Source: Heterodontus francisci (Eukaryota). From it: a stretch of 64,000 nucleotides of DNA. Positions 1-48,013 of the stretch are shown piece after piece (within the stretch, counting starts at the first letter, position 1; each line of letters starts with the position of its first letter). The notes under the pieces are model-generated. The model searched no databases, was not told the origin of the DNA, and saw only the letters and a list, made by a program, of their open reading frames with translations. The DNA lies in assembly GCF_036365525.1 (NCBI RefSeq), contig NW_027140861.1:186001-250000 (forward strand), in the 5' to 3' direction. The translations under genes and the position numbers were made by a program.

Positions 1-2836
1 AAACATCAACCCCACAGAGAGAGAAAGAAATCAGGGCATGAACCCCAAATCAACAACCCCACACAGAGAGAGACATCAGGGCATGAACCCCAAAACATCA
101 ACCCCACAGAGAGAGAAAGAAATCAGGGCATGAACCCCAAATCAACAACCCCACACAGAGAGAGACATCAGGGCATGAACCCCAAAACATCAACCTCACA
201 GAGAGAGAGAGAGACATCAGGGCATGAACCCTAAAACATCAACCTCACAGAGAGAGAGAGACATCTGGGCATGAACCCCAAATCAACAACCCCACAGAGA
301 GAGAGACATCAGGGCATGAACCCCAAAACATCAACCCCACAGAGAAAGAAAGAAATCAGGGCATGAACCCCAAAACATCAACCTCACAGAGAGAGAGAGA
401 CATCTGGGCATGAACCCCAAATCAACAACCCCACAGAGAGAGAGACATCAGGGCATGAACCCCAAAACATCAACCTCACAGAGAGAGAGAGAGACATCTG
501 GGCATGAACCCCAAATCAACAACCCCACAGAGAGAGAGACATCAGGGCATGAACCCCAAAACATCAACCCCACAGAGAGAGAAAGACATCAGGGCATGAA
601 CCCCAAAACATTAACCCCACAGAGAGAGAAAGACATCAGGGCATGAACGCTAAAACACCAACCGCACAGAGAGACACATCAGGGCATGAACCCCAAAACA
701 CCAACCCCACAAAGAGAGAGAGAGAAAGACATCAGGGCATGAACCCCGAAATACCAACCCCACAGAGAAAGAGAGACATCAGGGCATGAACCCCAAATCA
801 CCAACCCCACAGAGAAAGAGAGACATCAGGGCATGAACCCCAAAACATCAACCCCACAGAGAGAGAGACATCAGGGCATGAACCCCAAAACATCAACCCC
901 ACAGAGATAGAGACATCAGGGCATGAACCCCAAAACATCAACCCCACAGAGAGAGAGAGAGACATCAGGGCATGAACCCCAAAACAACAACCCCACAGAG
1001 AGAGAGAGAGAGAGAGATCAGGGCATGAACCCCAAAACATCAACCCCACAGAGAGAGAAAGACATCAGGGCATGAACGCTAAAACACCAACCGCACAGGG
1101 AGACACATCAGGGCATGAACCCCAAATCACCAAACCCATGAGAGAGAGAGACATCAGGGCATGAACCCCAAAACACCAACCCCACAAAGAGAGAGAGAGA
1201 AAGACATCAGGGCATGAACCCCAAAATACCAACCCCACAGAGAAAGAGAGACATCAGGGCATGAACCCCAAATCACCAACCCCACAGAGAAAGAGAGACA
1301 TCAGGGCATGAACCCCAAAACACCAACCCCACAGAGAGAGAAAGAGACATCAGGGCATGAACCCCAAAACATCAACCCCACAGCGAGAGACAGACATCAG
1401 GGCATGAACCCCAAAACATCAACCCCACAGAGAGAGAGAGAGAGACATCAGGGCATGAACCCCAAAACATCAACCCCACAGAGAGAGAGAGAGAGACATC
1501 AGGGCATGAACCACAAAACATCAACCCCACAGAGTGAGAGAGAGACATCAGGGCATGAACCCCAAAACATCAACCCCACAGAGAGAGAGAGAGAGACATC
1601 AGGGCATGAACCCTAAAACACCAACCCCAGAGAGAGAAAGAGAGACATCAGGGCATGAACCCCAAAACACCAACCCCACAGAGAGAGATAGACATCAGGG
1701 CATGAACCCCAAAACACCAACCCCACAGAGAGAGAGAGAGAGACATCAGGGCATGAACCCCAAAACATCAACCCCACAGAGAGAGAGAGAGACATCAGGG
1801 CATGAACCCCAAAACATCAACCCCACAGAGAGAGAGAGAGAGACATCAGGGCATGAACCCCAAAACATCAACCCCAGAGAGAGAAAGAGAGAGAGATCAG
1901 GGCATGAACCCCAAAACACCAACCCCACAGAGAGAGATAGACATCTGGGCATGAACCCCAAAACACCAACCCCACAGAGAGAGACATCAGGGCATGAACC
2001 TCAAAACATCAACCCCACAGAGAGAGAGAGAGACATCAGGGCATGAACCCCAAAACACCAACCCCACAGAGAGAGAGAGAGAGACATCAGGGCATGAACC
2101 CCAAAACATCAACCCCACAGAGAGAGAGAGAGAGAGACATCAGGGCATGAACCCCAAAACACCAACCCCACAGAGAGAGAGAGAGAGACATCAGGGAATG
2201 AACCCCAAAACATCAACCCCACAGAGAGAGAGAGAGAGACATCAGGGCATGAACCCCAAAACATCAACCCCAGAGAGAGAGAGAGACATCAGGGCATGAA
2301 CCCTAAAACATCAACCCCACAGAGAGAGAGAGACATCAGGGCATGAACCCCAAAACATCAACCCCACAGAGAGAGAGAGAGAGACATCAGGGCACGAACC
2401 CCAAAACATCAACCCCACACAGAGAGAGAGAGAGACATCAGGGCATGAACCCCAAAACACCAACCCCACAGAGAGAGAGAGAGAGAGAGACATCAGGGCA
2501 TGAACCCCAAAACATCGACCCCACAGAGAGAGAGAGAGAGACAGAGAGACATCAGGGCATGAACCCCAAAACATCAACCCCAGAGAGAGAGAGAGAGAGA
2601 GAGACATCAGGGCATGAACCCTAAAACATCAACCCCACAGAGAGAGAGAGAGAGAGAGACATCAGGGCATGAACCCCAAAACATCGACCCCACAGAGAGA
2701 GAGAGAGAGAGAGACATCAGGGCATGAACCCCAAAACACCAACCCCAGAGCGAGAGAGAGAGAGACATCAGGGCATGAACCTCAAAACACCAACCCCAGA
2801 GAGAGAGAGAGAGAGAGACATCAGGGCATGAACCCC
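1..2836. repeat. Compound minisatellite, ~48-60 bp unit GACATCAGGGCATGAACCCCAAAACA(T/C)CAACCCCACA(GA)n, roughly 50-55 copies, truncated by window start
   Basis: Tandem units directly visible; unit length varies with the embedded (GA)n tract. Confidence 0.97.
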
Positions 2837-2999
2837 AAATCCTCAACTGCGCGCACACACAGACACCCCATCTCCCACAGATATCAGAGCATAAAGCCTA
2901 AAACAGCAATGCCATACATATATAGAGAGTGACATCAGGGCAAGAAGCCCAAACACAAAACCCACAGTGACAGTATATGAACCCAAAGATGCATCCAAG

Positions 3000-5272
3000 C
3001 AACACAACATAGAGCCCATATGAATAAACACCAACACAACACAGAGCCCCTGTAAATAAACCCCAACACAACACAGAGCCCCTGGAAATAAACACCGACA
3101 CAACGCAACATAGAGGCCCTGTAAATAAACCCCAACACAACACAGAGCCCCTGGAAATAAACACCCACACAACACAACATAGAGCCCCTGTAAATAAACA
3201 CCAACACAACACAGAGCCCCTGGAAATAAACACCAACACAACACAGAGCCCCTATAAATAAACACCAACACAACACAGAGCCCCTGTAAATAAACACCAA
3301 CACAACACAGAGCCCCTGTAAATAAACCCCAATAAAACACAGAGCCCCTATAAATAAACCCCAACATAACACAGAGCCCCTGGAAATTAACATCAATACA
3401 ACACAGAGCCCCTGTAAATAAACACCAACACAACACAGAGCCCCTGAAAATAAATCCCAATAAAACACAGATCCCCTATAAATAAACACCAACACAAAAC
3501 AGAGCCCCTGGAAATAAACCCCAACACAACACAGAGCCCCTATAAATAAACCTCAGCACAACACAGAGCCCCTGTAATTATACCCCAACACAACACAGAG
3601 CCCCTATAAATAAACCCCAACATAACACATAGCCCCTGGAAATTAACACCAATGCAACACAGAGCCCCTGTAAATAAACACCAACACAACACAGAGCCCC
3701 TGGAAATAAACCCCAATAAAACACAGAGCCCCTATAAATAAACACCAACACAAAACAGAGCCCCTGGAAATAAACCCCAACACAACACAGAGCCCTTATA
3801 AATAAACCCCAGCACAACACAGAGCCCCTATAAATAAACCCCAACATAACACAGAGCCCCTGGAAATTAACACCAATACAACACAGAGCCCCTGTAAATA
3901 AACACCAACACAACACAGAGCCCCTGTAAATAAACACAACACAACACAGAGCCCCTGTAAATAAACACAACACAACACAGAGCCCCTGTAAATAAACACC
4001 AACACAACACAGAGCCCCTGTAAATAAACCCCAGCACAACACAGAGCCCCTATAAATAAACACCAACACAACACAGAGCCCCTGTAAATAAACACAACAC
4101 AACACAGAGCCCCTGTAAATAAACACCAACACAACACAGAGCCCCTGTAAATAAACCCCAGCACAACACAGAGCCCCTATAAATAAACACCAACACAAAA
4201 CAGAGCCCCTGTAAATAAACCCCAACACAACACAGAGCCCTTATAAATAAACCCCAGCACAACACAGAGCCCCTATAAATAAACCCCAACATAACACAGA
4301 GCCCCTGGAAATTAACACCAATACAACACAGAGCCCCTGTAAATAAACACCAACACAACACAGAGCCCCTGTAAATAAACACAACACAACACAGAGCCCC
4401 TGTAAATAAACACAACACAACACAGAGCCCCTGTAAATAAACACCAACACAACACAGAGCCCCTGTAAATAAACCCCAGCACAACACAGAGCCCCTATAA
4501 ATAAACACCAACACAACACAGAGCCCCTGTAAATAAACACAACACAACACAGAGCCCCTGTAAATAAACACCAACACAACACAGAGCCCCTGTAAATAAA
4601 CCCCAGCACAACACAGAGCCCCTATAAATAAACACCAACACAACACAGAGCCCCTGTAAATAAACCCCAGCACAACACAGAGCCCCTGTAAATAAACCCC
4701 AGCACAACACAGAGCCCCTGTAAATAAACCCCAGCACAACACAGAGCCCCTGTAAATAAACCCCAACACAACACAGAGCCCCTATAAATAAACCCCAGCA
4801 CAACACAGAGCCCCTATAAATAAACCCCAACATAACACAGAGCCCCTGGAAATAAACACCAACACAACACAGAGCCCCTGGAAATGAACACCAACACAAC
4901 ACAGAGCCCCTATAAATAAACACCAACACAACACAGAGCCCCTGGAAATGAACACCAACACAACACAGAGCCCCTATAAATAAACCCCAGCACAACACAG
5001 AGCCCCTATAAATAAACCCCAACATAACACAGAGCCCCTGGAAATAAACACCAACACAACACAGAGCCCCTGGAAATGAACACCAACACAACACAGAGCC
5101 CCTGTAAATAAACACCAACACAACACATGGTCCCTGTAACTAAACCTCAACACAACAGAGCATCCTGTAAATAAAACCCAACATAACTCAGAGCCTCTGT
5201 AAATAAACCAGTACACATCACAGAGGGCCTGTCAATAAACCCCAACACAACACAACACAATACAGAGCCCCT
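3000..5272. repeat. 32-bp minisatellite CACCAACACAACACAGAGCCCCTGTAAATAAA (~70 copies, some 30-bp variants)
   Basis: Tandem units visible; minus-strand ORFs repeat every 32 aa (3 units); identical ORFs at 3796 and 4241 show a 445-bp higher-order duplication. Confidence 0.97.
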
Positions 5273-5281
5273 GTTATCCAT

Positions 5282-5752
5282 AGGGGTGGATTTATGCTCC
5301 AGCTGAACAGAGCTTTGGCTAGAGCACATCTGGAGAGCTGTGTTTAGTTCTGAACACTGCACCTCTGGAATGATCTATTGGGCTTGGAGTGGGTACAGGG
5401 CAGATTGATTGGGTTCAGGACAAATTTCTTAGATTTGGCTCATATTCTCTCGAGTTTAGAAGATTAAAGGGTGAATTATTGAAGTGATTAAAATGTTACA
5501 AGAATTTGATAGAATAGATACAGCAAAACTACTTCCTGATTGGGGGAATGACGAATATGGGGATATAGTCTTCACATTGGAGCTATGCCGTTCAGGGGTG
5601 ATGTCAAGAAAGACTTCTTCACACAAAGGCCAGTGGAAATTTGGAAATCGCTCGATCAAAAGGCTCTGGATGCTGGGGATCAATTGGAGTTTTCAAAATG
5701 AGAGATATTTGTTCACTAAGGGTATCAAGGGATAATGGAGCAAAGCTGGGAA
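5282..5752 (+). mobile_element. CR1 LINE 3' fragment (decayed RT C-terminus)
   Basis: Decayed MLQLxRALxRxHLE..V.F and MIKMLQEFDRID...FFTQR motifs typical of the CR1 ORF2 end. Confidence 0.8.
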
Positions 5753-6400
5753 ACAACAAGAACTTGTATTTATATAGTGCCTGTGACATTACACAATATC
5801 CCAAAGTGCTTCACAGGGGCATTACAAAACAAAATATGACAGAGGGCCACATAAGGAGATATTAGAACAGCGGATCAAAAGCTTGGTTAAAGAGGTAGGT
5901 TTTCAGGTGTGTCTTAAAGGAGGAAAGTGAGTTAGAGAGGTGGAGAGGTGTAGGGAGGGAATTCCAGAGCCTGAGGCCTTGTCAATCAAAGGTAAGGGCA
6001 CCAATGGTGGAACGTTTAAAATCAGGGATGTTCCAGAGGCCAGAATTAGAGCAGTACAGATATCTCAGAGGGTTGTGGAACCGGAGGGTGTTACAGAGGT
6101 TGGAAGGGACGAGGCCATGGAGGGATTTGAAAATATGGATGAGAATTTTCAAATTGATATTTGTTTAACTGGGTGCGAGTGTAGGTCAGTGAGCACAGGG
6201 GTGATGGGTGAATGGGATTTGGTGCAAGTTAGGAAATGGGCAGCAAGGTTTTGGATGACCGCAAGGTTACAGAGGGTAGAATGTGAGAGGCAAGTCAGGA
6301 ATGTGTTAGAATAGTGACGTCTGAAAGTAACAAAGACATGGATGAGGTTTCAGCAGCAGAAGAGCTGAGAGAGGGTGATATTACAGAGGTGGAAATGGTA
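5753..6400 (-). mobile_element. L2-like LINE 3' fragment
   Basis: Starts with ACAACAAGAACTTGTATTTATATAGTGCC...CCCAAAGTGCTTCACA, the reverse complement of the shark L2/DeuSINE-type tail, followed by GGAGGGAATTCCAGAG-type L2 body. Confidence 0.7.
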
Positions 6401-6532
6401 AATGAAGTTGAGGTACAAATCAATTATGATCAAATACAAATGCTGTTGCTATCGTTCTCTCTCTCTATCTCCATTCTGCAGTCCCATGTCCCTCACTCCC
6501 CCTAAAGTCTCTCTCCATTCTCCAGTCCCAGT

Positions 6533-6703
6533 GCCCAGTCTAGCACTGAAACCCTCTCAGAGCCCATTACTCACTGACCAAGGGTTAATGCCCCAGTACC
6601 CAGCCTGGCACTGAGTCCTCTCAGAGCCCATTACCCACTGACCAAGGGTTAATGCCCCAGTACCCAGCCTGGCACTGAGACCCTCTCAGTCCCCATTACT
6701 CAC
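6533..6703. repeat. 64-bp tandem repeat (~2.6 copies) at the start of intron 1, including the splice-donor sequence
   Basis: CCAAGGGTTAATGCCCCAGTACCCAGCCTGGCACTGAG recurs at 6578 and 6642. Confidence 0.9.
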
Positions 6704-6752
6704 CTGCAGAGACTCCTCCACACAGGAGGACCAGTTCTATCACTCCAATCAT
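6704..6752 (-). CDS. Signal-peptide exon 1, probably of an MHC class I heavy-chain gene (shark UBA-like leader); rest of gene lies left of the window
   Basis: ATG at 6752 with A at -3; 49 nt = MIGVIELVLLCGGVSA + G; consensus phase-1 donor CAG|GTGAGT. The LLCGGVSA ending resembles shark class I leaders as I recall them. Class I-type promoter lies upstream. Confidence 0.72.
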
Positions 6753-6814
6753 TGTTGCTTCCCTCAACAGTCTGGGATGAACAGTTTGTGGGGAATCCTT
6801 TTCCCAACTACTGT

Positions 6815-7110
6815 CTCGGGCTCTGTGAGCTGTGTCCAGTTCAGACTGTGTGATTCCTCTGCCCCGTGTTCTGGGTCTGTGAGCTGTGTCCAGTTCAGAC
6901 TGTGTGATTTCTCTGCCCCGTGTTCTGGGTCTGTGAGCTGTGTCCAGTTCAGACTGTGTGATTCCTCTGCCCCGTGTTCTGGGTCTGTGAGCTGTGTCCA
7001 GTTCAGACTGTGTGATTTCTCTGCCCCGTGTTCTGGGTCTGTGAGCTGTGTCCAGTTCAGACTGTGTGATTCCTCTGCCCCGTGTTCTGGGTCTGTGAGC
7101 TGTGCCCAGT
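6815..7110. repeat. 54-bp tandem repeat (~5.3 copies) between promoter and ATG (putative 5' UTR VNTR)
   Basis: Unit CTGTGAGCTGTGTCCAGTTCAGACTGTGTGATT(C/T)CTCTGCCCCGTGTTCTGGGT; 18-aa periodicity in ORF 6696..7121. Confidence 0.96.
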
Positions 7111-7114
7111 GCTG

Positions 7115-7270
7115 ATTGCATTAAATCAGAAGATGTTGTTGGTTATTCAGACTGCTGCATACTGATTGGTTCGTTAGCATATTTGTGTCCAATCAGAATA
7201 AAACTACAGTAGTCTCTGGGCGAAAAAGATTTAGAAACCAGGAGCTGTGAATTGAAAAAGGGAAAGGTTT
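7115..7270 (-). promoter_or_regulatory. MHC class I-type promoter: IRF/ISRE-like site, X-like box, Y box, CCAAT box, TATA-like
   Basis: Minus-strand order: CTTTCCCTTTTTC (7254-7266), CCCAGAGACTACTG (7220-7207), CTGATTGG (7196-7189), 19 nt, CCAATCAG (7169-7162), TTTAAT (~7125-7120). Confidence 0.65.
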
Positions 7271-8286: not shown

Positions 8287-11200
8287 AGAAGGAGAGGACT
8301 CCTCATAGTCAGGAGTGAGGGTCCAATGTGATGGGTTAGGGAGGAGGGAGTGGTCTCCCCACAGTTGAGAGTGAGGGTCCGATGTGATGGGTTAGAGAGG
8401 CGGGAGTGGTCTCCCCACAGTTGGAGTGAGGGTCCGATGTGATAGGTTGGGGAGGAGGGAGTGGGCTCTTCACAGTTGAGAGTGAGGGTCCAATATGATG
8501 GGTTAGGAAGGAGGGACTGGTCTTCCCACAGTTGAGAGTGAGGGTCCGATGTGATAGATTAGGGAGGAGGGAGTGGGCTCCCCACAGTTGAGAGTGAGGG
8601 TCCGATGTGATGGGTTAGGGAGGAGGGAGTGGTCTCCCCACAGTTGGAGTGAGGGTCCGATGTGATGGGTTAGGGAGGAGGGAGTGGTCTCCCCACAGTT
8701 GGAGTGAGTGTCCGATGTGATGGGTTAGGGAGGAGGGAGTGGGCTCCCTACAGTTGGAGTGAGGGTCCGATGTGATAGGTTAGGGAGGAGGGAGTGGGCT
8801 CCCTACAGTTGGAGTGAGGGTCCGATGTGATAGGTTAGGGAGGAGGGAGTGGTCTCCCCACTGTTGAGAGTGAGGGTCCACTGTGATGGGTTAGGGAGGA
8901 GGGAGTGGTCTCCCCACAGTTGGAGTGAGTGTCCGATGTGATCGGTTAGGGAGGAGGGAGTGGTCTCCCCACAGTTGGAGTGAGTGTCCGATGTGATGGG
9001 TTAGGGAGGAGGGAGTGGGCTCCCTACAGTTGGAGTGAGGGTCCGATGTGATAGGTTAGGGAGGAGGGAGTGGGCTCCCTACAGTTGGAGTGAGGGTCCG
9101 ATGTGATAGGTTAGGGAGGAGGGAGTGGTCTCCCCACTGTTGAGAGTGAGGGTCCACTGTGATGGGTTAGGGAGGAGGGAGTGGACTCCCCACAGTTGGA
9201 GTGAGTGTCCGATGTGATCGGTTAGGGAGGAGGGAGTGGTCTCCCCACAGTTGGAGTGAGGGTCCAATGTGATAGGTTAGGGAGGAGGGAGTGGGCTCCC
9301 TACAGTTGGAGTTAGGGTCCGATGTGATAGGTTAGGGAGGAGGGAGTGGGCTCCCTACAGTTGGAGTGAGGGTCCGATGTGATAGGTTAGGGAGGAGGGA
9401 GTGGGCTCCCTGCGGTTGGAGTGAGGGTCCAATATGATGGGTTAGGGAGGAGGGAGTGGTCTCCCCACAGTTGAGAGTGAGGGTCCGATGTGATAGGTTA
9501 GGGAGGAGGGAGTGGTCTCCCCACAGTTGAGAGTGAGGGTCCAATATGATGGGTTAGGGAGGAGGGAGTGGGCTCCCTACAGTTGGAGTGAGGGTCCGAT
9601 GTGATAGGTTAGGGAGGAGGGAGTGGGCTCCCTACAGTTGGAGTGAGGGTCCGATGTGATAGGTTAGGGAGGAGGGAGTGGGCTCCCTACAGTTGGAGTG
9701 ACGGTCCAATGTGATAGGTTAGGGAGGAGCGAGTGGGCTCCCTACAGTTGGAGTGAGGGTCCGATGTGATAGGTTAGGGAGGAGGGAGTGGGCTCCCCAC
9801 AGTTGAGAGTGAGGGTCCGATGTGATAGGTTAGGGAGGAGGGAGTGGTCTCCCCACAGTTGAGAGTGAGGGTCCAATGTGATGGGTTAGGGAGGAGGGAG
9901 TGGTCTCCCCACAGTTGAGAGTGAGGGTCCGATGTGATAGGTTAGGGAGGAGGGAGTGGTCTCCCCACAGTTGAGAGTGAGTGTCTAATGTGATGGGTTA
10001 GGGAGGAGGGAGTGGGCTCCCTACAGTTGGAGTGACGGTCCAATGTGATAGGTTAGGGAGGAGCGAGTGGGCTCCCTACAGTTGGAGTGAGGGTCCGATG
10101 TGATAGGTTAGGGAGGAGGGAGTGGGCTCCCCACAGTTGAGAGTGAGGGTCCGATGTGATAGGTTAGGGAGGAGGGAGTGGTCTCCCCACAGTTGAGAGT
10201 GAGGGTCCAATGTGATGGGTTAGGGAGGAGGGAGTGGTGTCCCCACAGTTGGAGTGAGGGTCCAATGTGATGGGTTAGGGAGGAGGGAGTGGTCTCCCCA
10301 CAGTTGAGAGTGAGGGTCCAATGTGATGGGTTAGGGAGGAGGGAGTGGTCTCCCCACAGTTGAGAGTGAGGGTCCAATGTGATGGGTTAGGGAGGAGGGA
10401 GTGGGCTCCCTACAGTCGGAGTGAGGGTCCGATGTGATAGGGTAGGGAGGAGGGTGTGGGCTCCCCACAGTTGCGAGTGAGGGTCCGATGTGATAGGTTA
10501 GGGAGGAGGGAGTGGTCTCCCTGCAGTTGGAGTGAGGGTCTGATGTGATAGGTTAGGGAGGTGGGAGTGGTCTCCCCACAGTTGAGAGTGAGGGTCCAAT
10601 GTGATGAGTTAGGGAGGAGGGAGTGGTCTCCCCACAGTTGGAGTGTGTCCGATGTGATCGGTTAGGGAGGAGGGAGTGGTCTCCCCACAGTTGGAGTGAG
10701 GGTCCGATGTGATAGGTTAGGGAGGAGGGAGTGGTCTCCCCACAGTTGGAGTGAGTGTCCGATGTGATCGGTTAGGGAGGAGGGAGTGGTCTCCCCACAG
10801 TTGAGAGTGAGGGTCCGATGTGATAGGTTAGGGAGGAGGGAGTGGTCTCCCCACAGTTGAGAGTGAGGGTCCAATGTGATGGGTTAGGGAGGAGGGAGTG
10901 GGCTCCCCACAGTTGAGAGTGAGGGTCCAATGTGATGGGTTAGGGAGGAGGGAGTGGTCTCCCCACAGTTGGAGTGAGGGTCCAATGTGATGTTAGGGAG
11001 GAAGGAGTGGTCTCCCCACAGTTGGAGTGAGTGTCCGATGTGATTGGTTAGGGAGGAGGGAGTGGTCTCCCCACAGTTGGAGTGAGGGTCCGATGTGATC
11101 GGTTAGGGAGGAGGGAGTGGTGTCCCCACAGTTGGAGTGAGGGTCCAATGTGATGGGTTAGGGAGGAGGGAGTGGTCTCCCCACAGTTGGAGTGAGGGTC

Positions 11201-14200
11201 CGATGTGATCGGTTAGGGAGGAGGGAGTGGTCTCCCCACAGTTGGAGTGAGGGTCCAATCTGATGGAGGATTGAGGGAGGAGGGAGTGGTCTCCCCACAG
11301 TTGGAGTGAGGGTCCAATGTGATGGGTTAGGGAGGAGGGAGTGGTCTCCCCACAGTTGAGAGTGAGGGTCCAATGTGATGGGTTAGGGAGGAGGGAGTGG
11401 TCTCCCCACAGTTGAGAGTGAGGGTCCAATGTGATGGGTTAGGGAGGAGGGAGTGGGCTCCCTACAGTCGGAGTGAGGGTCCGATGTGATAGGGTAGGGA
11501 GGAGGGTGTGGGCTCCCCACAGTTGCGAGTGAGGGTCCGATGTGATAGGTTAGGGAGGAGGGAGTGGTCTCCCTGCAGTTGGAGTGAGGGTCTGATGTGA
11601 TAGGTTAGGGAGGAGGGAGTGGTCTCCCCACAGTTGAGAGTGAGGGTCCAATGTGATGAGTTAGGGAGGAGGGAGTGGTCTCCCCACAGTTGGAGTGTGT
11701 CCGATGTGATCGGTTAGGGAGGAGGGAGTGGTCTCCCCACAGTTGGAGTGAGGGTCCGATGTGATAGGTTAGGGAGGAGGGAGTGGTCTCCCCACAGTTG
11801 GAGTGAGTGTCCGATGTGATCGGTTAGGGAGGAGGGAGTGGTCTCCCCACAGTTGAGAGTGAGGGTCCGATGTGATAGGTTAGGGAGGAGGGAGTGGTCT
11901 CCCCACAGTTGAGAGTGAGGGTCCAATGTGATGGGTTAGGGAGGAGGGAGTGGGCTCCCCACAGTTGAGAGTGAGGGTCCAATGTGATGGGTTAGGGAGG
12001 AGGGAGTGGTCTCCCCACAGTTGGAGTGAGGGTCCAATGTGATGTTAGGGAGGAAGGAGTGGTCTCCCCACAGTTGGAGTGAGTGTCCGATGTGATCGGT
12101 TAGGGAGGAGGGAGTGGTCTCCCCACAGTTGGAGTGAGGGTCCGATGTGATCGGTTAGGGAGGAGGGAGTGGTGTCCCCACAGTTGGAGTGAGGGTCCAA
12201 TGTGATGGGTTAGGGAGGAGGGAGTGGTCTCCCCACAGTTGGAGCGAGGGTCCGATGTGATCGGTTAGGGAGGAGGGAGTGGTCTCCCCACAGTTGGAGT
12301 GAGGGTCCAATCTGATGGAGGATTGAGGGAGGAGGGAGTGGTCTCCCCACAGTTGGAGTGAGGGTCCAATCTGATGGAGAATTGAGGGAGGAGGGAGTGG
12401 GCTCCCCACAGTTGAGAGTGAGAGTCCAATGTGATGGGTTAGGGAGGAGGGAGTGGGCTCCCCACAGTTGAGAGTGAGGGTCCGATGTGATAGGTTAGGG
12501 AGGAGGGAGTGGTCTCCCCACAGTTGAGAGTGAGGGTCCAATGTGATGGGTTAGGGAGGAGGGAGTGGGCTCCCTACATTTGGAGTGAGGGTCCGATGTG
12601 ATAGGTTAGGGAGGAGGGAGTGGGCTCCCCACAGTTGAGAGTGAGGGTCCGATGTGATAGGTTAGGGAGGAGGGAGTGGTCTCCCCACAGTTGAGAGTGA
12701 GGGTCCAATGTGATGGGTTAGGGAGGAGGGAGTGGTCTCCCCACAGTTGGAGTGAGGGTCCGATGTGATAGGTTAGGGTGGAGGGAGTGGTCTCCCCACA
12801 GTTGGAGTGAGTGTCCGATGTGATCGGTTAGGGAGGAGGGAGTGGTCTCCCCACAGTTGGAGTGAGTGTCCGATGTGATGGGTTAGGGAGGAGAGAGTGG
12901 TCTCCCCACAGTTGGAGTGAGGGTCCGATGTGATGGGTTAGGGAGGAGGGAGTGGGCTCCCCACAGTTGGAGTGAGGGTCCGATGTGATAGGTTAGGGAG
13001 GAGGGAGTGGGCTCCCCACAGTTGGAGTGAGGGTCCGATGTGATCGGTTAGGGAGGAGGGAGTGGTCTCCCCACAGTTCCAGTGAGGGTCCGATGTGATC
13101 GGTTAGGGAGGAGGGAGTTGTCTCCCCACAGTTGGAGTGAGGGTCTGATGTGATCGGTTAGGGAGGAGGGAGTGGTCTCCCCACAGTCGGAGTGAGGGTC
13201 CGATGTGATCGGTTAGGGAGGAGGGAGTGGTGTCCCCACAGTTGGAGTGAGGGTCCAATGTGATGGGTTAGGGAGGAGGGAGTGGTCTCCCCACAGTTGG
13301 AGTGAGGGTCCGATGTGATCGGTTAGGGAGGAGGGAGTGGTCTCCCCACAGTTGGAGTGAGGGTCCAATCTGATGGAGGATTGAGGGAGGAGGGAGTGGT
13401 CTCCCCACAGTTGGAGTGAGGGTCCAATGTGATGGGTTAGGGAGGAGGGAGTGGTCTCCCCACAGTTGAGAGTGAGGGTCCAATGTGATGGGTTAGGGAG
13501 GAGGGAGTGGTCTCCCCACAGTTGAGAGTGAGGGTCCAATGTGATGGGTTAGGGAGGAGGGAGTGGGCTCCCTACAGTCGGAGTGAGGGTCCGATGTGAT
13601 AGGGTAGGGAGGAGGGTGTGGGCTCCCCACAGTTGCGAGTGAGGGTCCGATGTGATAGGTTAGGGAGGAGGGAGTGGTCTCCCTGCAGTTGGAGTGAGGG
13701 TCTGATGTGATAGGTTAGGGAGGAGGGAGTGGTCTCCCCACAGTTGAGAGTGAGGGTCCAATGTGATGAGTTAGGGAGGAGGGAGTGGTCTCCCCACAGT
13801 TGGAGTGTGTCCGATGTGATCGGTTAGGGAGGAGGGAGTGGTCTCCCCACAGTTGGAGTGAGGGTCCGATGTGATAGGTTAGGGAGGAGGGAGTGGTCTC
13901 CCCACAGTTGGAGTGAGTGTCCGATGTGATCGGTTAGGGAGGAGGGAGTGGTCTCCCCACAGTTGAGAGTGAGGGTCCGATGTGATAGGTTAGGGAGGAG
14001 GGAGTGGTCTCCCCACAGTTGAGAGTGAGGGTCCAATGTGATGGGTTAGGGAGGAGGGAGTGGGCTCCCCACAGTTGAGAGTGAGGGTCCAATGTGATGG
14101 GTTAGGGAGGAGGGAGTGGTCTCCCCACAGTTGGAGTGAGGGTCCAATGTGATGTTAGGGAGGAAGGAGTGGTCTCCCCACAGTTGGAGTGAGTGTCCGA

Positions 14201-16040
14201 TGTGATCGGTTAGGGAGGAGGGAGTGGTCTCCCCACAGTTGGAGTGAGGGTCCGATGTGATCGGTTAGGGAGGAGGGAGTGGTGTCCCCACAGTTGGAGT
14301 GAGGGTCCAATGTGATGGGTTAGGGAGGAGGGAGTGGTCTCCCCACAGTTGGAGCGAGGGTCCGATGTGATCGGTTAGGGAGGAGGGAGTGGTCTCCCCA
14401 CAGTTGGAGTGAGGGTCCAATCTGATGGAGGATTGAGGGAGGAGGGAGTGGTCTCCCCACAGTTGGAGTGAGGGTCCAATCTGATGGAGAATTGAGGGAG
14501 GAGGGAGTGGGCTCCCCACAGTTGAGAGTGAGAGTCCAATGTGATGGGTTAGGGAGGAGGGAGTGGGCTCCCCACAGTTGAGAGTGAGGGTCCGATGTGA
14601 TAGGTTAGGGAGGAGGGAGTGGTCTCCCCACAGTTGAGAGTGAGGGTCCAATGTGATGGGTTAGGGAGGAGGGAGTGGGCTCCCTACATTTGGAGTGAGG
14701 GTCCGATGTGATAGGTTAGGGAGGAGGGAGTGGGCTCCCCACAGTTGAGAGTGAGGGTCCGATGTGATAGGTTAGGGAGGAGGGAGTGGTCTCCCCACAG
14801 TTGAGAGTGAGGGTCCAATGTGATGGGTTAGGGAGGAGGGAGTGGTCTCCCCACAGTTGGAGTGAGGGTCCGATGTGATAGGTTAGGGTGGAGGGAGTGG
14901 TCTCCCCACAGTTGGAGTGAGTGTCCGATGTGATCGGTTAGGGAGGAGGGAGTGGTCTCCCCACAGTTGGAGTGAGTGTCCGATGTGATGGGTTAGGGAG
15001 GAGAGAGTGGTCTCCCCACAGTTGGAGTGAGGGTCCGATGTGATGGGTTAGGGAGGAGGGAGTGGGCTCCCCACAGTTGGAGTGAGGGTCCGATGTGATA
15101 GGTTAGGGAGGAGGGAGTGGGCTCCCCACAGTTGGAGTGAGGGTCCAATGTGATCGGTTAGGGAGGAGGGAGTGGTCTCCCCACAGTTCCAGTGAGGGTC
15201 CGATGTGATCGGTTAGGGAGGAGGGAGTTGTCTCCCCACAGTTGGAGTGAGGGTCTGATGTGATCGGTTAGGGAGGAGGGAGTGGTCTCCCCACAGTCGG
15301 AGTGAGGGTCCGATGTGATCGGTTAGGGAGGAGGGAGTGGTCTCCCCACAGTTGAGAGTGTGGGTCCGATATGATCGGTTAGGGAGGAGGGAGTGGTCTT
15401 CCCACAGTCGGAGTGAGGGTCCGATGTGATCGGTTAGGGAGGAGGGAGTGGTCTTTCCACAGTCGGAGTGTGGGTCCGATGTGATCGGTTAGGGAGGAGG
15501 GAGTTGTCTCCCCACAGTTGAGAGTGAGTGTCCAATCTGATGGAGGATTGAGGGAGGAGTGGTGTCCCTACAGCTGGTATAAGGGTCCAATGTGATGGGA
15601 GAGTGAGGTGGGGTGTTCTCCCCACAGTCGGAGTGAGGGTCTGATGTGATAGGGGCGTGAGGAGGGAGTGGTCTTCCCACAGTCGGAGTGAGGGCCTGAT
15701 GTGATAGGGGCGTGAGGAGGGAGTGGTCTTCCCACAGTCGGAGTGAGGGTCTGATGTGATAGGGGCGTGAGGAGGGAGTGGTCTTCCCACAGTCGGAGTG
15801 AGGGTCTGATGTGATAGGGGCGTGAGGAGGGAGTGGTCTTCCCACAGTCGGAGTGAGGGTCTGATGTGATAGGGCCGTGAGGAGGGAGTGGTCTCCCCAC
15901 AGTCGGAGTGAGGGTCCAATGTGATGGGTTAGGGAGGAGGGAGTGGTCTTCCCACAGTCGGAGTGAGGGTCCGATGTGATAGGGGCGTGAGGAGGGAGTG
16001 GTCTTCCCACAGTCGGAGTGAGGGTCTGATGTGATGGGGT
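8284..16040 (+). repeat. 55/56-bp G-rich minisatellite TTAGGGAGGAGGGAGTGGTCTCCCCACAGTTG(A)GAGTGAGGGTCCGATGTGATGGG, ~140 copies
   Basis: Tandem units visible; identical ORFs offset by 2110 bp (11103/13213, 11714/13824, 12155/14265) and 1052 bp (10662/11714). Confidence 0.98.
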
Positions 16041-38689: not shown

Positions 38690-39761
38690 ATATTCCATAG
38701 AGTAACTGACTTTAAAACAATTAGAATAGAATTAAACACACTGGAAATGGGCAGAAGTAGTAAGATGAAAGTTCAGAGAGACAGTTGAAGGGCTAGGAAT
38801 GATCCACATGATGGATATGGTAAAGAGAGAGCTGGAGAATCATTCAAGTCCATGCCTGATCTGTTACTTGAAACAAAAGTACTGAGAACAGGACAATCAT
38901 TTAGAATTAACAAGCTTCAGCAAAAGAATAAAGTATTGATCTTGGGAATCTTGAATTACTGCAACAGTTGTTAAGGAACAGATAATAATGAGGAATCACA
39001 TTGTTAGATACAAAAATCCACCTATTTATATCTCCCTGATCAATGAAACCACCTGGGTTGCCCCTGACTTGTCTGGGGGTCTCCAGTCAGAGGATGTCTT
39101 TGTTTGCCCATATGATATTGTAGAAAACTCTGCTCCAGCATGTGGATTTACCTGGAACAAAGATCCCCTCAACTGTACAATGGAAATAGTGAGTGGAGAG
39201 GAGTTCCCCAATCACTCTGTCTACCAAGGTGAGGGAAGTTATTGTGTTGTTACTACCCACACAGAGTATACATATGACAGTTTAATGTGTCAAATAAAGA
39301 AGGGAGAATTTTGTTTTAGTCCCTCTCTAAGGGCTCAGATAGTAAACAAGGTCCTATTCAGTATAAGGAATCATCAGCAAATAAATATCACTGTTAAAGA
39401 TGACCTCAAGGAGCAGTTATATCAATATGTCAGTAGATTTGTTTATGGCATTCCCCCTTTTCCTGAACATCTGACTGAGCTATTGCAAAGACTCAATACA
39501 TCCAACAAACACTTTTATGTCCTGCAACAATAAAATGAGGAAATTAAAAAGGAAATCCCTGAGATAGGGGATGAGAGTCACTGGTGTGACATTGAAATAC
39601 CCCCTTGGATCAGGATTATTTCCCATGTCTTTGTAATCGTTCAATAGGTGATAATTCTGATTTTGGTGTGTGCGTTAAGACAAATCATGGGGATGATAAA
39701 GAAAATGAGAATTAGACAGGAGACCATGAAAGAATATGCCCCACTTAAGGGTAATGTATGA
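38690..39761 (+). pseudogene. env: ERV env remnant, class I fusion protein of paramyxo/pneumovirus-F type (lokiretrovirus-like)
   Basis: ORF 38988-39533 is a Cys-rich ectodomain (PDLSG.LQSEDVFVCP...ACG...NCTMEIVSG...GSYCV). Reading through the stops gives heptad NEEIKKEI, W-containing linker, TM PPWIRIISHVFVIVQ*VIILILVCAL and a basic tail ending TGA 39759-39761. Confidence 0.8.
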
Positions 39762-40340
39762 GGGATCAATGCCATCTGGTATTTTACCCTCACAGTGGGC
39801 ACTGTAGGAACTAAGGGGTTAACTGCCATGTTTAATCTGTTGGATGAATCTGTGCGAGTTGTGGCCTGATACAATTCACATGAGGTGCTATGTTTTAAAG
39901 TAGAATAATTTGAAATGATATTGTGGTTATGTTCAGGAATAGTTATACTTTGTATATGTATCAATGTATTATATTAGAATTAAGTTCTGGACCTTGTGTT
40001 TGGAATCATGTTGTTATGTGAAATGTATATTTGTACGCTGTATTGGAGAGATGGTGGAAGACGGTTTAACTGTAACAACAATAGTTTAAGTGACTTTGCG
40101 ATGAGACAGGATGTTTTGATAAGTACCTTACTGCATTTCAATTAAGACAGGCTCAGGGTCGGAATAATTGATAGACTTGTCGGCCTCATGATGGAAATGT
40201 AAATAAAGGTGTTCGGAGACTATTCATGACTGGAATGTTTATGAGGATAGCAAACATTCCCCATTGTGTGACAATGACTTAGGCCATCAAGCTATCTTCA
40301 GAGACAATGTATGAAAGGTGAGGTCATACCTGATCAATCG

Positions 40341-40689: not shown

Positions 40690-42510
40690 TCTTCTTCTTC
40701 TTTTTCTTATTTGGCCTCTTTGTTTTGAGAGACAATGGGTAAGTGCCTGGAGGTGGTCAGTGGTTTGTGAAGCAACGCCTGGTGTGGCTCTTAAGGCCAA
40801 TTCTAGAGTGACAGACTCTTCCACAGGCGCTGCAGATAAAATTGGTTGTCGGGGCTGTTACACAGTTGGCTCTCCCCTTGCGTTTTTCTTTTTTCCTGCC
40901 AATTGCTAAGTCTCTTCGACTCGCCACTCTTTAGCCCCGCCTTTATGGCTGTCTGCCAGCTCTGGCGATCACGGGTAACTGACTCCCACAACTTGTAATC
41001 AATGTCACAATACTTCATGTCGCGTTTTGAGACGTCTTTGAAGCGGAGACATGGACGGCCGGCGGGTCTGATACCAGTGGCGAGCTCGCTGTACAATGTG
41101 TCTTTGGGGATCCTGCCATCTTCCATGTGGCTCACATGGCCAAGCCATCTCAAGCGCCGCTGGCTCAGTAGGGTGTATATGCTGGGCATGTTGGCCGTCT
41201 CGAGGACTTCTGTGTTGGAGATACGGTCCTGCCACCTGATGCCAAGGATACTCTGGAGGCAGCGAAGATGGAATGAATTGAGACGTCGCTTTTGACTGAC
41301 ATACGTTGTCCAGGCCTCGCTGCCGTAGAGCAAGGTACTGAGGACACAGGCTTCATACACTCGGACTTTTGTGTTCCATGTCAGTGCGCCATTTTCCCAC
41401 AATCTCTTGGCCAGTCTGGACATAGCAGTGGAAGCCTTTCCCATGTGCTTGTTGATTTCTGCATCGAGAGACAGGTTACTGGTGATAGTTGAGCTTAGGT
41501 AGGTAAACTCTTGAACCACTTCCAGAGCGTGGTCATCGATATTGATGGATGGAGCATTTCTGTCATCCTGTCCCATGATGTTCATTTTCTTGAGGCTGAT
41601 GTTTAGGCCAAATTTGTTGCAGGCAGCCGTAATCCTGTCGATGAGACTCTGCAGACACACTTCATTGTGGGATGTTAATGCAGCATCGTCAGCAAAGAGG
41701 AGTTCCCTGATGAGGACTTTCCGTACTTTGGTCTTCGCTCTTAGACGGGCAAGGTTGAACAACCTGCCATCTGATCTTGTGTGGAGGAAAATTCCTTCTT
41801 CTGAAGATTTGAATGCATGTGAGAGCAGCAGGGAGAAGAAGATCCCAAACAGTGTAAGTGCGAAAACACAGCCCTGTTTCACGCCACTCAGGATAGGAAA
41901 GGGGTCTGATGAGGCGCTGCTATGTTGAATTGTGCCTTTCATATTGTCATGGAATGAGGTGATGATACTTAGTAGCTTTGGTGGACATCCAATCTTTTCT
42001 AGTAGTCTGAAGAGACCACGTCTGCTGACGAGGTCAAAGGCTTTGGTGAGATCTATGAAAGCAACGTAGAGGGGCATCTGTTGTTCACGGCATTTCTCCT
42101 GCAGCTGGCGAAGGGAGAACATCATGTCAGTGGTAGATCTCTCTGCTCGAAAGCCACACTGTGCCTCAGGGTAGATGCGCTCAGACAGCTTCTGGAGTCT
42201 GTTTAAAGCAACTCGAGCGAAGACCTTCCCCACTATGCTGAGCAGGGAGATTCCACGGTAGTTGTTGCAGTCACCGCGGTCACCCTTGTTCTAATAGAGG
42301 GTGATGATGTTGGTATTGCGCATGTCCTGTGGTACTGCTCCCTCATCCCAGCACAGGCAAAGCAGTTCGTTGAGTGCTGAGAGTATAGCAGGCTTTGCAC
42401 TCTTGATTATTTCAGGTGTAATGCCGTCCTTCCCAAGGGGCTTTTCCACTGGCTAGAGAATCAATGGCATCACTGAGTTCCGATTTTGTTGGCTTTTCGT
42501 CCAGCTCGTG
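40690..42510 (-). mobile_element. RTE-clade LINE, 5'-truncated; 476-aa open RT region
   Basis: QCGFRAERST, FIDLTKAFD, GVKQGC, LFADD, RRLRWLGHV; (GAA)n tail at ~40691; stop and frameshift upstream of 42233. Confidence 0.93.
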
Positions 42511-46214: not shown

Positions 46215-48013
46215 AAGTGGTAGAAGTGTCAGTGGGAGGACATTACGGTGATTGTGACCATAACTCTGTACGATTTAAGGTAGTTATGGAAAATGGCAAA
46301 GATGGACCGGAAATAAAGGTACTGAATTGGGGGAAGGCCGATTTCAATATGATAAAACAGGATCTGGCCAAAGTGGACTGGGAGCATCTACTTGTAGGAA
46401 AGTCTACATCAGACCAGTGGGAATCAGTCAAAAAGGAAATAGTGAGAGTTCAGGGCCAACATGTTCCAGTAAAGGTGAAGGGTAGGACCAACAGGTCCAG
46501 GGAACCCTGGATGTCAAGGGGGAAAGAGGATTGGATGAGAAAAAAAAGGAGGCTTATGGCAAATTCAGAGGGTGGAAAACAGCAGAGGCCCTAGAGGAGT
46601 TTAGAAAGTGTAGAGGCGTACTTAAAAAAGTAATTAGGAGAGGGGGCATGAAAAAACACTGGTGTGCAAGATAAAGGAAAATCCTAAGGTGTTTTATAAG
46701 TACATTAAGGGCAAGAGGATAACCAGGGAAAGAGTAGGGCCCATTACAAAGTGGCAATTTGTATGTGGAGCTGGAGAACATAGGTGAGGCTTTGAATGAT
46801 TACTTTTCATCTGTGTTCACTATGGAGAAGGATGATGTAAGTGGAGGAGGATTTGATATACTTGAACAAATTAGCACTGAAAGGGAGGAGGTATTAGTGG
46901 TTTTAGCGGGCTTAAAAGTGGATAAATCCCCAGGCCCAGATGAGATGTATACCAGGCTGCTATGTGAGGCAAGGGAGGATATTTCGGAGGCTCTGACACA
47001 AATTTTCAAATCCTCTCTAGCCACAGGAGAGTTGCCAGAGGACTGGAGGACAGTGAATGTGGTATCATTATTCAAGAAAGGTAGTAGGGATAAACCAGGT
47101 AATTACAGGCCAGTGAGTCTAACATCAGTGGTAGGGAAACTATTGGAAAATATTCTGAGGGACAGGATTAATCTCCACTTGGAGAGGCAGGAATTAATCA
47201 AGAATAGTCAGCACGGCTTTGTCGGGGAGATCATGTCTAAGAAATCTGACTGAATTTTTCGAGGAGGTGATTAGATGTGTAGATAAGGGTAAAGTAGTTG
47301 ATGTAGTATACGTGGACTTCAGTAAGGCTTTTGATAAGGTCCCGCATGGGAGATTATTCAAGAAGATAAGAGCCCATGGGATCCAGGGCAATTTGGCAAA
47401 CTGGATCCAAAATTGACTCCGTGCAGGAGGCAGAGGGTGTTGGTGGATTGGTGTTTTGTGATTGGAAGCCTGTGACCAGTTATGTACCGCAGGGATCGTG
47501 CTATTTGTGCTGTTTGTCGTGTACATTAATGATTTAGACATGAATATAGGAGGTATGATCAGTAAGTTCGCAGATAACACTAAAATTGGTGGTGTCGTAA
47601 ATAGTGAGGAGGAAAGTCTTAGATTACAGGATGATATAGATGGGCCGGTAAGATGGGCAGAGCAGTGGCAAATGGAATTTAATCCTGAGAAGTGCGAGGT
47701 GATGCATTTTGGGAGGACTAACAAGTCATGGGAATATACAATGGATGCTAGGTCCCTAGGAAGAACAGAGGGTCAGAGGGACCTTTGTGTACTTGCCCAT
47801 AGATCACTGAACGCAACAGCACAGGTAGATAAGGTAATAAGGGATACTTGCATTATTTGGCCAAGGCATAGAATAGAAGAGCAGGGAGGTTATGATGGAG
47901 CTGTATAAAACGCTAGTCAGGCCACAGCAGGAGTACTGTGTACAGTTCTGGTCACCACACTATATGAAGGATGTGATTGAACTGGAGAGGGTGCAGCTGA
48001 GATTCACCAGGAT
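46215..48013 (+). mobile_element. CR1 LINE ORF2 fragment (EN end to RT), frameshifted
   Basis: DCDHNSV, KSPGPD, PGNYRPVSLTSVVGK, QHGF, DFSKAFDKVPH, SKFADN, LYKTLVRP. Confidence 0.93.

Follow-up and report, generated by a model that had tools for sequence, protein, structure and literature searches.

An MHC class I gene of the horn shark Heterodontus francisci belonging to a multicopy, class Ia-like shark lineage with a conserved groove

Gene structure, transcription and start codon

The window analysed here is the whole 64,000-nt stretch C815:186001-250000 of the horn shark (Heterodontus francisci) assembly, C815 being an unplaced contig. The region at window positions 7270-6704 is the promoter and exon 1 of an intact MHC class I gene read on the minus strand (Table 1). 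The coding part of exon 1 consists of 49 nt (6752-6704), reads MIGVIELVLLCGGVSA followed by G, and is succeeded by the donor GTGAGT. A leader exon of this length with a consensus donor had been proposed in an earlier sequence-only reading and was borne out by the gene structure and by splicing to alpha-1. Class I exons had also been expected on the minus strand left of the window. The alpha-1 exon was located there at C815:184872-184612, followed by the alpha-2, alpha-3, transmembrane and two cytoplasmic exons, and Pfam MHC_I matches could be found at C815:184607-184873 and 177319-177585. The observed alpha-1 start, GSHSLRY, agrees with the predicted (D/G)xHSLRY, and intron 1, which had been expected to exceed 6.7 kb, places alpha-1 7,831 nt 3' of the leader exon. 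The gene has seven exons, all with GT-AG junctions, spans 25,842 nt and encodes one open frame of 355 amino acids, and thus follows the exon plan of class I heavy chains, with phase 1 exons and an open frame.

Table 1. Coordinates of the features of the gene and its promoter in the window
Feature	Window position	Strand	Remarks
Intron 1, window part	1..6703	-	7,831 nt overall; carries 64-, 32- and 47-bp tandem arrays
Coding part of exon 1	6704..6752	-	16-residue signal peptide, then base 1 of the following codon; phase 1
141-aa upstream-ATG ORF	6696..7121	-	RefSeq start; probably not the functional start
54-bp variable tandem repeat	6822..7110	-	5.4 units; transcribed 5' leader region; copies differ in length
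CCAAT box CCAATCAG	7162..7169	-	inverted partner of the Y box
Y box CTGATTGG	7189..7196	-	conserved in paralogues
X1-like box CCCAGAGAC	7212..7220	-	27 nt before ATTGG
Possible degenerate S box	7234..7242	-	by-eye comparison with paralogue promoters; weak
IRF-like box of the sequence-only reading	7254..7268	-	without ISRE core, not conserved; not accepted

The spliced product differed by 1 residue from the RefSeq protein P0033 and contained the Pfam domains MHC_I and C1-set. The best structure match of the predicted P0033 model (mean pLDDT 77.3) was the shark class I structure 6LUP, with an E value of 7e-35. Both the exon and the gene are already in RefSeq and hence known to databases, and the exon in itself is ordinary. 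The RefSeq models of Heterodontus francisci describe the same locus and the same protein; they are 100% identical in alpha-3, and three of them sit on contig C815. The RefSeq entry carries a generic name without a lineage, whereas the gene is placed in a lineage here. The models P0002, P0003 and P0025 on C815 represent predicted isoforms without alpha-2, without alpha-1, or stopping after alpha-3, the last of which is possibly a soluble product; such an isoform set recalls that of HLA-G. Two extra cysteines (LCC, DTCS) were observed in the alpha-3 exon (C815:176762-176487), both absent from five aligned orthologues, and the second one is replaced in one copy.

Transcription was evaluated in four of the five runs that contain part of this stretch, the four representing one sample from one study whose RNA status was guessed. 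In 4/4 runs examined, RNA contigs broke off at 6703 and continued into the start of alpha-1 at high depth, and they extended over the 54-bp repeat to at least 7097. At position 6808, all four runs gave contigs with A, as in the other 8 copies of the gene and unlike C815. The splicing of the leader to alpha-1 at 6704 is thereby shown at the level of the family, on contigs that carry the base of the sister copies.

As the sequence-only reading had it, the leader is hidden at the end of a repeat-derived frame of 141 amino acids, which begins with an ATG at 7121 and runs through the 54-bp repeat. The three RefSeq models on C815 start 123 codons upstream, inside the repeat, and of the 15 members listed from the 39-member cluster, 8 use the leader Met as their start and 7 an upstream position. 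The upstream extension measures 69, 87 or 123 residues, as set by the repeat number, and the upstream ORF is in frame in 5/9 copies and frameshifted in 4/9. With this variable length and the loss of frame in four copies, the 123-residue extension was ruled out as a conserved feature. Position -3 is A at the leader ATG and T at the upstream ATG. From this we infer that translation begins at the leader ATG, and the start codon of several RefSeq models is likely wrong. Translation from the leader ATG could proceed by leaky scanning or from a downstream start site, and the signal peptide would be cleaved after VSA.

A Glu residue in the hydrophobic core of the leader had earlier been suspected of weakening the signal peptide or of marking a decaying paralog, and neither suspicion held. 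The best 8-residue hydropathy of the leader was 2.91 compared to 2.56 in a Triakis class I leader, so the core is no weaker. The Glu is present in 9/9 recent copies, in 3/20 other loci and in 3 Mustelus proteins. Decay was rejected on the recurrence of the residue in paralogues and Mustelus, the intact frame and the transcription of the family; the Glu is a tolerated, recurring variant.

Promoter

The arrangement ATTGG-N19-CCAAT, which had been noted in the sequence-only reading, is present at 7193-7165 as the only match in the window, where 0.06 would be expected; at least one match was seen in 6/100 shuffles, and the match count in the window alone is weak evidence. Comparison was extended to 29 leader loci out of 51 matches, many of the matches being repeat fragments. 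The arrangement precedes the leader in all 9 recent copies and in 9 of the 20 diverged paralogues, with N18 in 3 more; of these 20 loci, one has no located leader, one has its match at a distance of 1,263 nt, and near-duplicates make up two pairs. Among the paralogues, the exact N19 spacing is kept while the spacer sequence varies.

Eight of the nine diverged loci with N19 have an X2-like core and four have an X1-like box. The distance from X1 to ATTGG is 37-38 nt in the diverged paralogues compared to 27 nt in all nine recent copies, and no X2 core was found in any of these nine, this locus included. The shorter spacing and the missing core show that X2 was lost in the recent-copy subfamily by a 10-nt deletion. 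No ISRE core (TTTCnnTTTC or GAAAnnGAAA) was found within 900 nt in the nine recent copies, and the IRF/ISRE box at 7268-7254, which lacks the core and is not conserved in paralogues, was not accepted. Of the boxes that the sequence-only reading had set against the ISRE-SXY-CCAAT promoter of class I genes, the X-like box and the ATTGG/CCAAT pair stand and the IRF-like one does not; the deletion of X2 had been missed. Of the elements of an SXY module, Y and X1-like boxes are present at this locus, S is at best degenerate, and X2 and an ISRE core are absent. The parts of PMC7922096 consulted define the module as S, X1, X2 and Y, give a more relaxed X-Y spacing at NLRC5 sites and describe the ISRE as variable. 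The present promoter may be driven by RFX and two NF-Y sites, without an X2 factor. In one class I paralogue (L084, C29:32203400-32206600), a strong X1 box CCATGGCAAC, an X2-like core and a Y box could be seen, 675 nt before its ATG.

Copies and their genomic setting

Leader matches at 99-100% identity numbered nine, seven on the chromosome C29 and one each on C1655 and C815, and matches of alpha-2 plus alpha-3 added C1290, giving 10 copies, of which the three unplaced ones may be alleles. The copies differ by 0-5 nt and by at most 2 residues per domain. The multicopy shark class I cluster that had been postulated is thus real, with about ten near-identical members. Intron 1 varies from about 6.1 to 18.4 kb among nine otherwise 99% identical copies. 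Upstream satellites are common to the copies, and the first 10 kb upstream is shared with the other 8 copies; the satellites were therefore duplicated with the gene. Five copies further share an element 21-44 kb upstream. The C815 copy resembles the 62.8-Mb copy in its upstream spacing and the 59.2-Mb copy at its 3' end, and has private differences from every other copy.

On C29, class II alpha lies at 51.97 and 53.92 Mb, the class I copies at 57.4-62.8 Mb, ABC-transporter exons at 65.1-65.7 Mb, a proteasome beta exon at 65.9 Mb and further (UAA-type) class I genes at 66.3-67.0 Mb. From their position, the ABC-transporter and proteasome exons are inferred to be TAP and PSMB8/9. The seven chromosome copies lie 2.3-7.7 Mb from the TAP-like exons, which other class I genes adjoin. 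C4-like exons are present at 30.9-31.8 and 46.1 Mb, the nearest copy being 11 Mb away. A leader-like exon with an in-frame stop (L076, C29:64124857-64125003) is a probable pseudogene remnant.

The setting had been called a repeat desert, and tandem repeats indeed cover 83% of window 1-37,000. Long tandem arrays occupy 8312-35000, with a 55-bp unit at 8312-16038 and further arrays beyond. A repeated element at 38700-39900 contains a 192-aa open frame without a Pfam match. It occurs in at least 40 places of the genome at 92-100% identity; of the 41 matches listed, 31 fall in C29 54.6-63.7 Mb and all others on unplaced contigs. It is an element amplified locally, in the part of C29 that also holds the class I copies. 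LINE-type reverse transcriptase frames (Pfam RVT_1) were observed at 40803-42290 (minus strand) and 46738-47908 (plus strand). A scan of C815 for the zinc-finger linker motif revealed none.

Lineage, groove conservation and function

A protein search with alpha-1/2 returned 184 proteins, of which the best 120 were considered. Among the matches listed, the best non-self single-groove proteins, at 79-83%, came from two Chiloscyllium species, Stegostoma and two Scyliorhinus species, and the other class I genes of the horn shark reached at most 71% to this groove. A groove tree was built from 61 sequences, 58 from stored cartilaginous fish proteins and 3 outgroups, leaving aside tandem-fused models and most ray paralogues. 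Six sequences from three orders, those of horn shark, catsharks and carpet sharks, formed a clade (support 100/97) that branched by species and fell among UAA-like sequences, outside an 18-row clade with nurse shark O19479 and horn shark O19480. We take the latter clade to be the UBA lineage, and a sister relation of the two was compatible with an AU test (p 0.142). In an alpha-3 tree made by a quick method from 60 rows and 88 columns, the lineage fell into an 11-row clade (support 99) whose other members come from Squalus, Heptranchias, Pristiophorus and, with one gene, the horn shark; UAA of nurse shark and Triakis, about 40% identical to the lineage in alpha-3, lay elsewhere.

All ten classical peptide-end anchors (Y7, Y59, R84, Y123, T143, K146, W147, Y159, W167, Y171) are kept, in HLA-A2 numbering placed by motif. 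The groove comparison used one horn shark assembly and orthologues from the database proteins of five other species. In the lineage, the 31 pocket sites that normally vary had a mean pairwise identity of 0.89, compared to 0.83 for the remaining alpha-1/2 sites and 0.72 for alpha-3. Four Triakis sequences, alleles of one species, showed the reverse order, with 0.62, 0.88 and 0.99, respectively, and four class Ia-region genes of the horn shark had a pocket-site identity of 0.34. Invariant sites in the lineage made up 24/31 of the pocket and 91/137 of the other sites, a difference that is not significant (Fisher p 0.29). Squalus, Heptranchias and Pristiophorus genes whose grooves vary share this alpha-3 type, as does a horn shark gene beside TAP, and the I33/D34 motif recurs in two further genes of the horn shark and in one sequence from Triakis. 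Given this distribution, exchange with classical genes is likely.

These comparisons lead us to favour, with moderate confidence, a class Ia-like shark lineage that is likely a nonclassical, fixed-groove presenter of peptides, working in the manner of teleost Z or HLA-E. The chain would pair with beta-2-microglobulin and load a narrow, conserved set of short peptides; the acidic residues D34 and E116 would, as a prediction from sequence only, favour basic anchor residues. The peptides may be shown to an invariant innate-like T or NK-type receptor, and the copies would raise dosage and not repertoire. A more specific version is held tentatively, at somewhat less than an even chance: a shark class Ib counterpart of HLA-E/Z with one conserved peptide and an invariant receptor, which would be X2-less and amplified about tenfold in the horn shark, its variable-repeat leader tuning dosage.

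HLA-E, like Qa-1 a nonclassical class I molecule with a conserved groove, is read by a fixed receptor. The likeness of the shark lineage to them and to typical Z molecules, for which reading by a fixed receptor has been proposed in the portions of PMC6523485 consulted, is functional: they have in common a class I frame that binds peptide, a groove that is conserved and a copy number of 1 to about 10. As in Z, distant species agree in their pocket residues, here at 0.89 across three orders. The lineages are not homologous as such: the shark lineage is UAA-like and keeps W167 and Y171, and its conservation is seen in three galeomorph shark orders only.

The extracts of PMC10751288 (Verissimo et al. 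2023) used here describe a single Ia gene by TAP/PSMB and, as unpublished data, extra 'MHC-Ia-like' genes of elasmobranchs. Like this cluster, these are UAA-like extras near class Ia in variable number, described in those extracts without the groove analysis given here. The catshark 'MHC-Ia like' gene LOC119976219 is placed there between class II and TAP1, the same arrangement as the horn shark cluster; no link was found between this gene id and the catshark orthologue XP_038672470.

Classical UAA offers the strongest rival, though we regard it as unlikely: an ancient allelic lineage of this gene, or a second locus of it, recently amplified in this haplotype and presenting ordinary peptides to CD8 T cells. 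It would account for the ten anchors, for the place of the groove among UAA-like sequences, for an alpha-3 type in common with Squalus Q8HWH7 and other squalomorph genes, and for the deep RNA contigs, a depth equally expected of a classical gene; for shark class II, allelic lineages of great age are reported (PMC8010645). Classical UAA (nurse shark UAA*01, PDB 6LUP; Triakis UAA) shares the fold, exon plan and anchors, with 6LUP 60% identical in alpha-1 and 71% in alpha-2. However, alpha-3 is unlike that of nurse shark or Triakis UAA, being only 40% identical with a 4-residue insertion in the horn shark lineage, the X2 box is lost, and the same groove recurs in database proteins of five other species, conserved between species where that of UAA varies within one. 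High allelic polymorphism of the groove would be expected of a classical gene; the copies and the cross-species data suggest low variation. A classical gene is a single gene closely linked to TAP and PSMB8/9, whereas about ten near-identical copies stand here, those on the chromosome 2.3-7.7 Mb from TAP-like exons that other class I genes adjoin.

That the C815 copy of a functional lineage is itself silent, or a redundant haplotype of a chromosome copy, is improbable. The base at 6808 in 4/4 runs and the unplaced contig, with its mixed resemblance to the 62.8-Mb and 59.2-Mb copies, would suit this explanation, but the copy has an undamaged frame, splice sites and promoter boxes, rare variants are dropped from contigs, C815 carries RefSeq models, and the private differences set this copy apart from all others. 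Membership in the known multicopy nonclassical UBA lineage is very improbable: the multicopy state, the similar leader and the AU result speak for it, and UBA is likewise MHC-linked and derived from UAA-like stock (in the passages of PMC12562908 consulted), but the gene falls outside the clade with O19479 and O19480, keeps Y59, T143 and K146, anchors that the UBA clade mostly loses, has a different alpha-3 type and is not beside the C4-like genes, UBA being placed between c4 and rxrb in the extracts of PMC10751288.

The shark class Ib lineages given in those same passages of PMC12562908 are UBA, UEA, UDA, UFA and UGA only. A literature search, whose reach did not include the main shark class Ib papers, found no paper describing the present lineage. 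The present analysis contributes the contrast at pocket sites, the type of alpha-3, the deletion of X2 and the problem of the start codon. The UEA, UCA, UDA and UFA lineages have a divergent groove with anchors replaced. The horn shark lineage is unlike them by its intact anchors, the tree being one without labelled references of those lineages. The shark nonclassical families known so far are characterised by divergent grooves, whereas this lineage keeps the classical anchors and freezes its pockets, a pattern that points to a conserved peptide read by a fixed receptor in the oldest MHC-bearing animals. In a class I gene next to the class Ia region, at C29:66469195-66574957 (L012, L090, L056; P0007), the alpha-3 type of the present lineage and a Glu leader were observed together with a divergent groove carrying F7, F59, E146 and F171.
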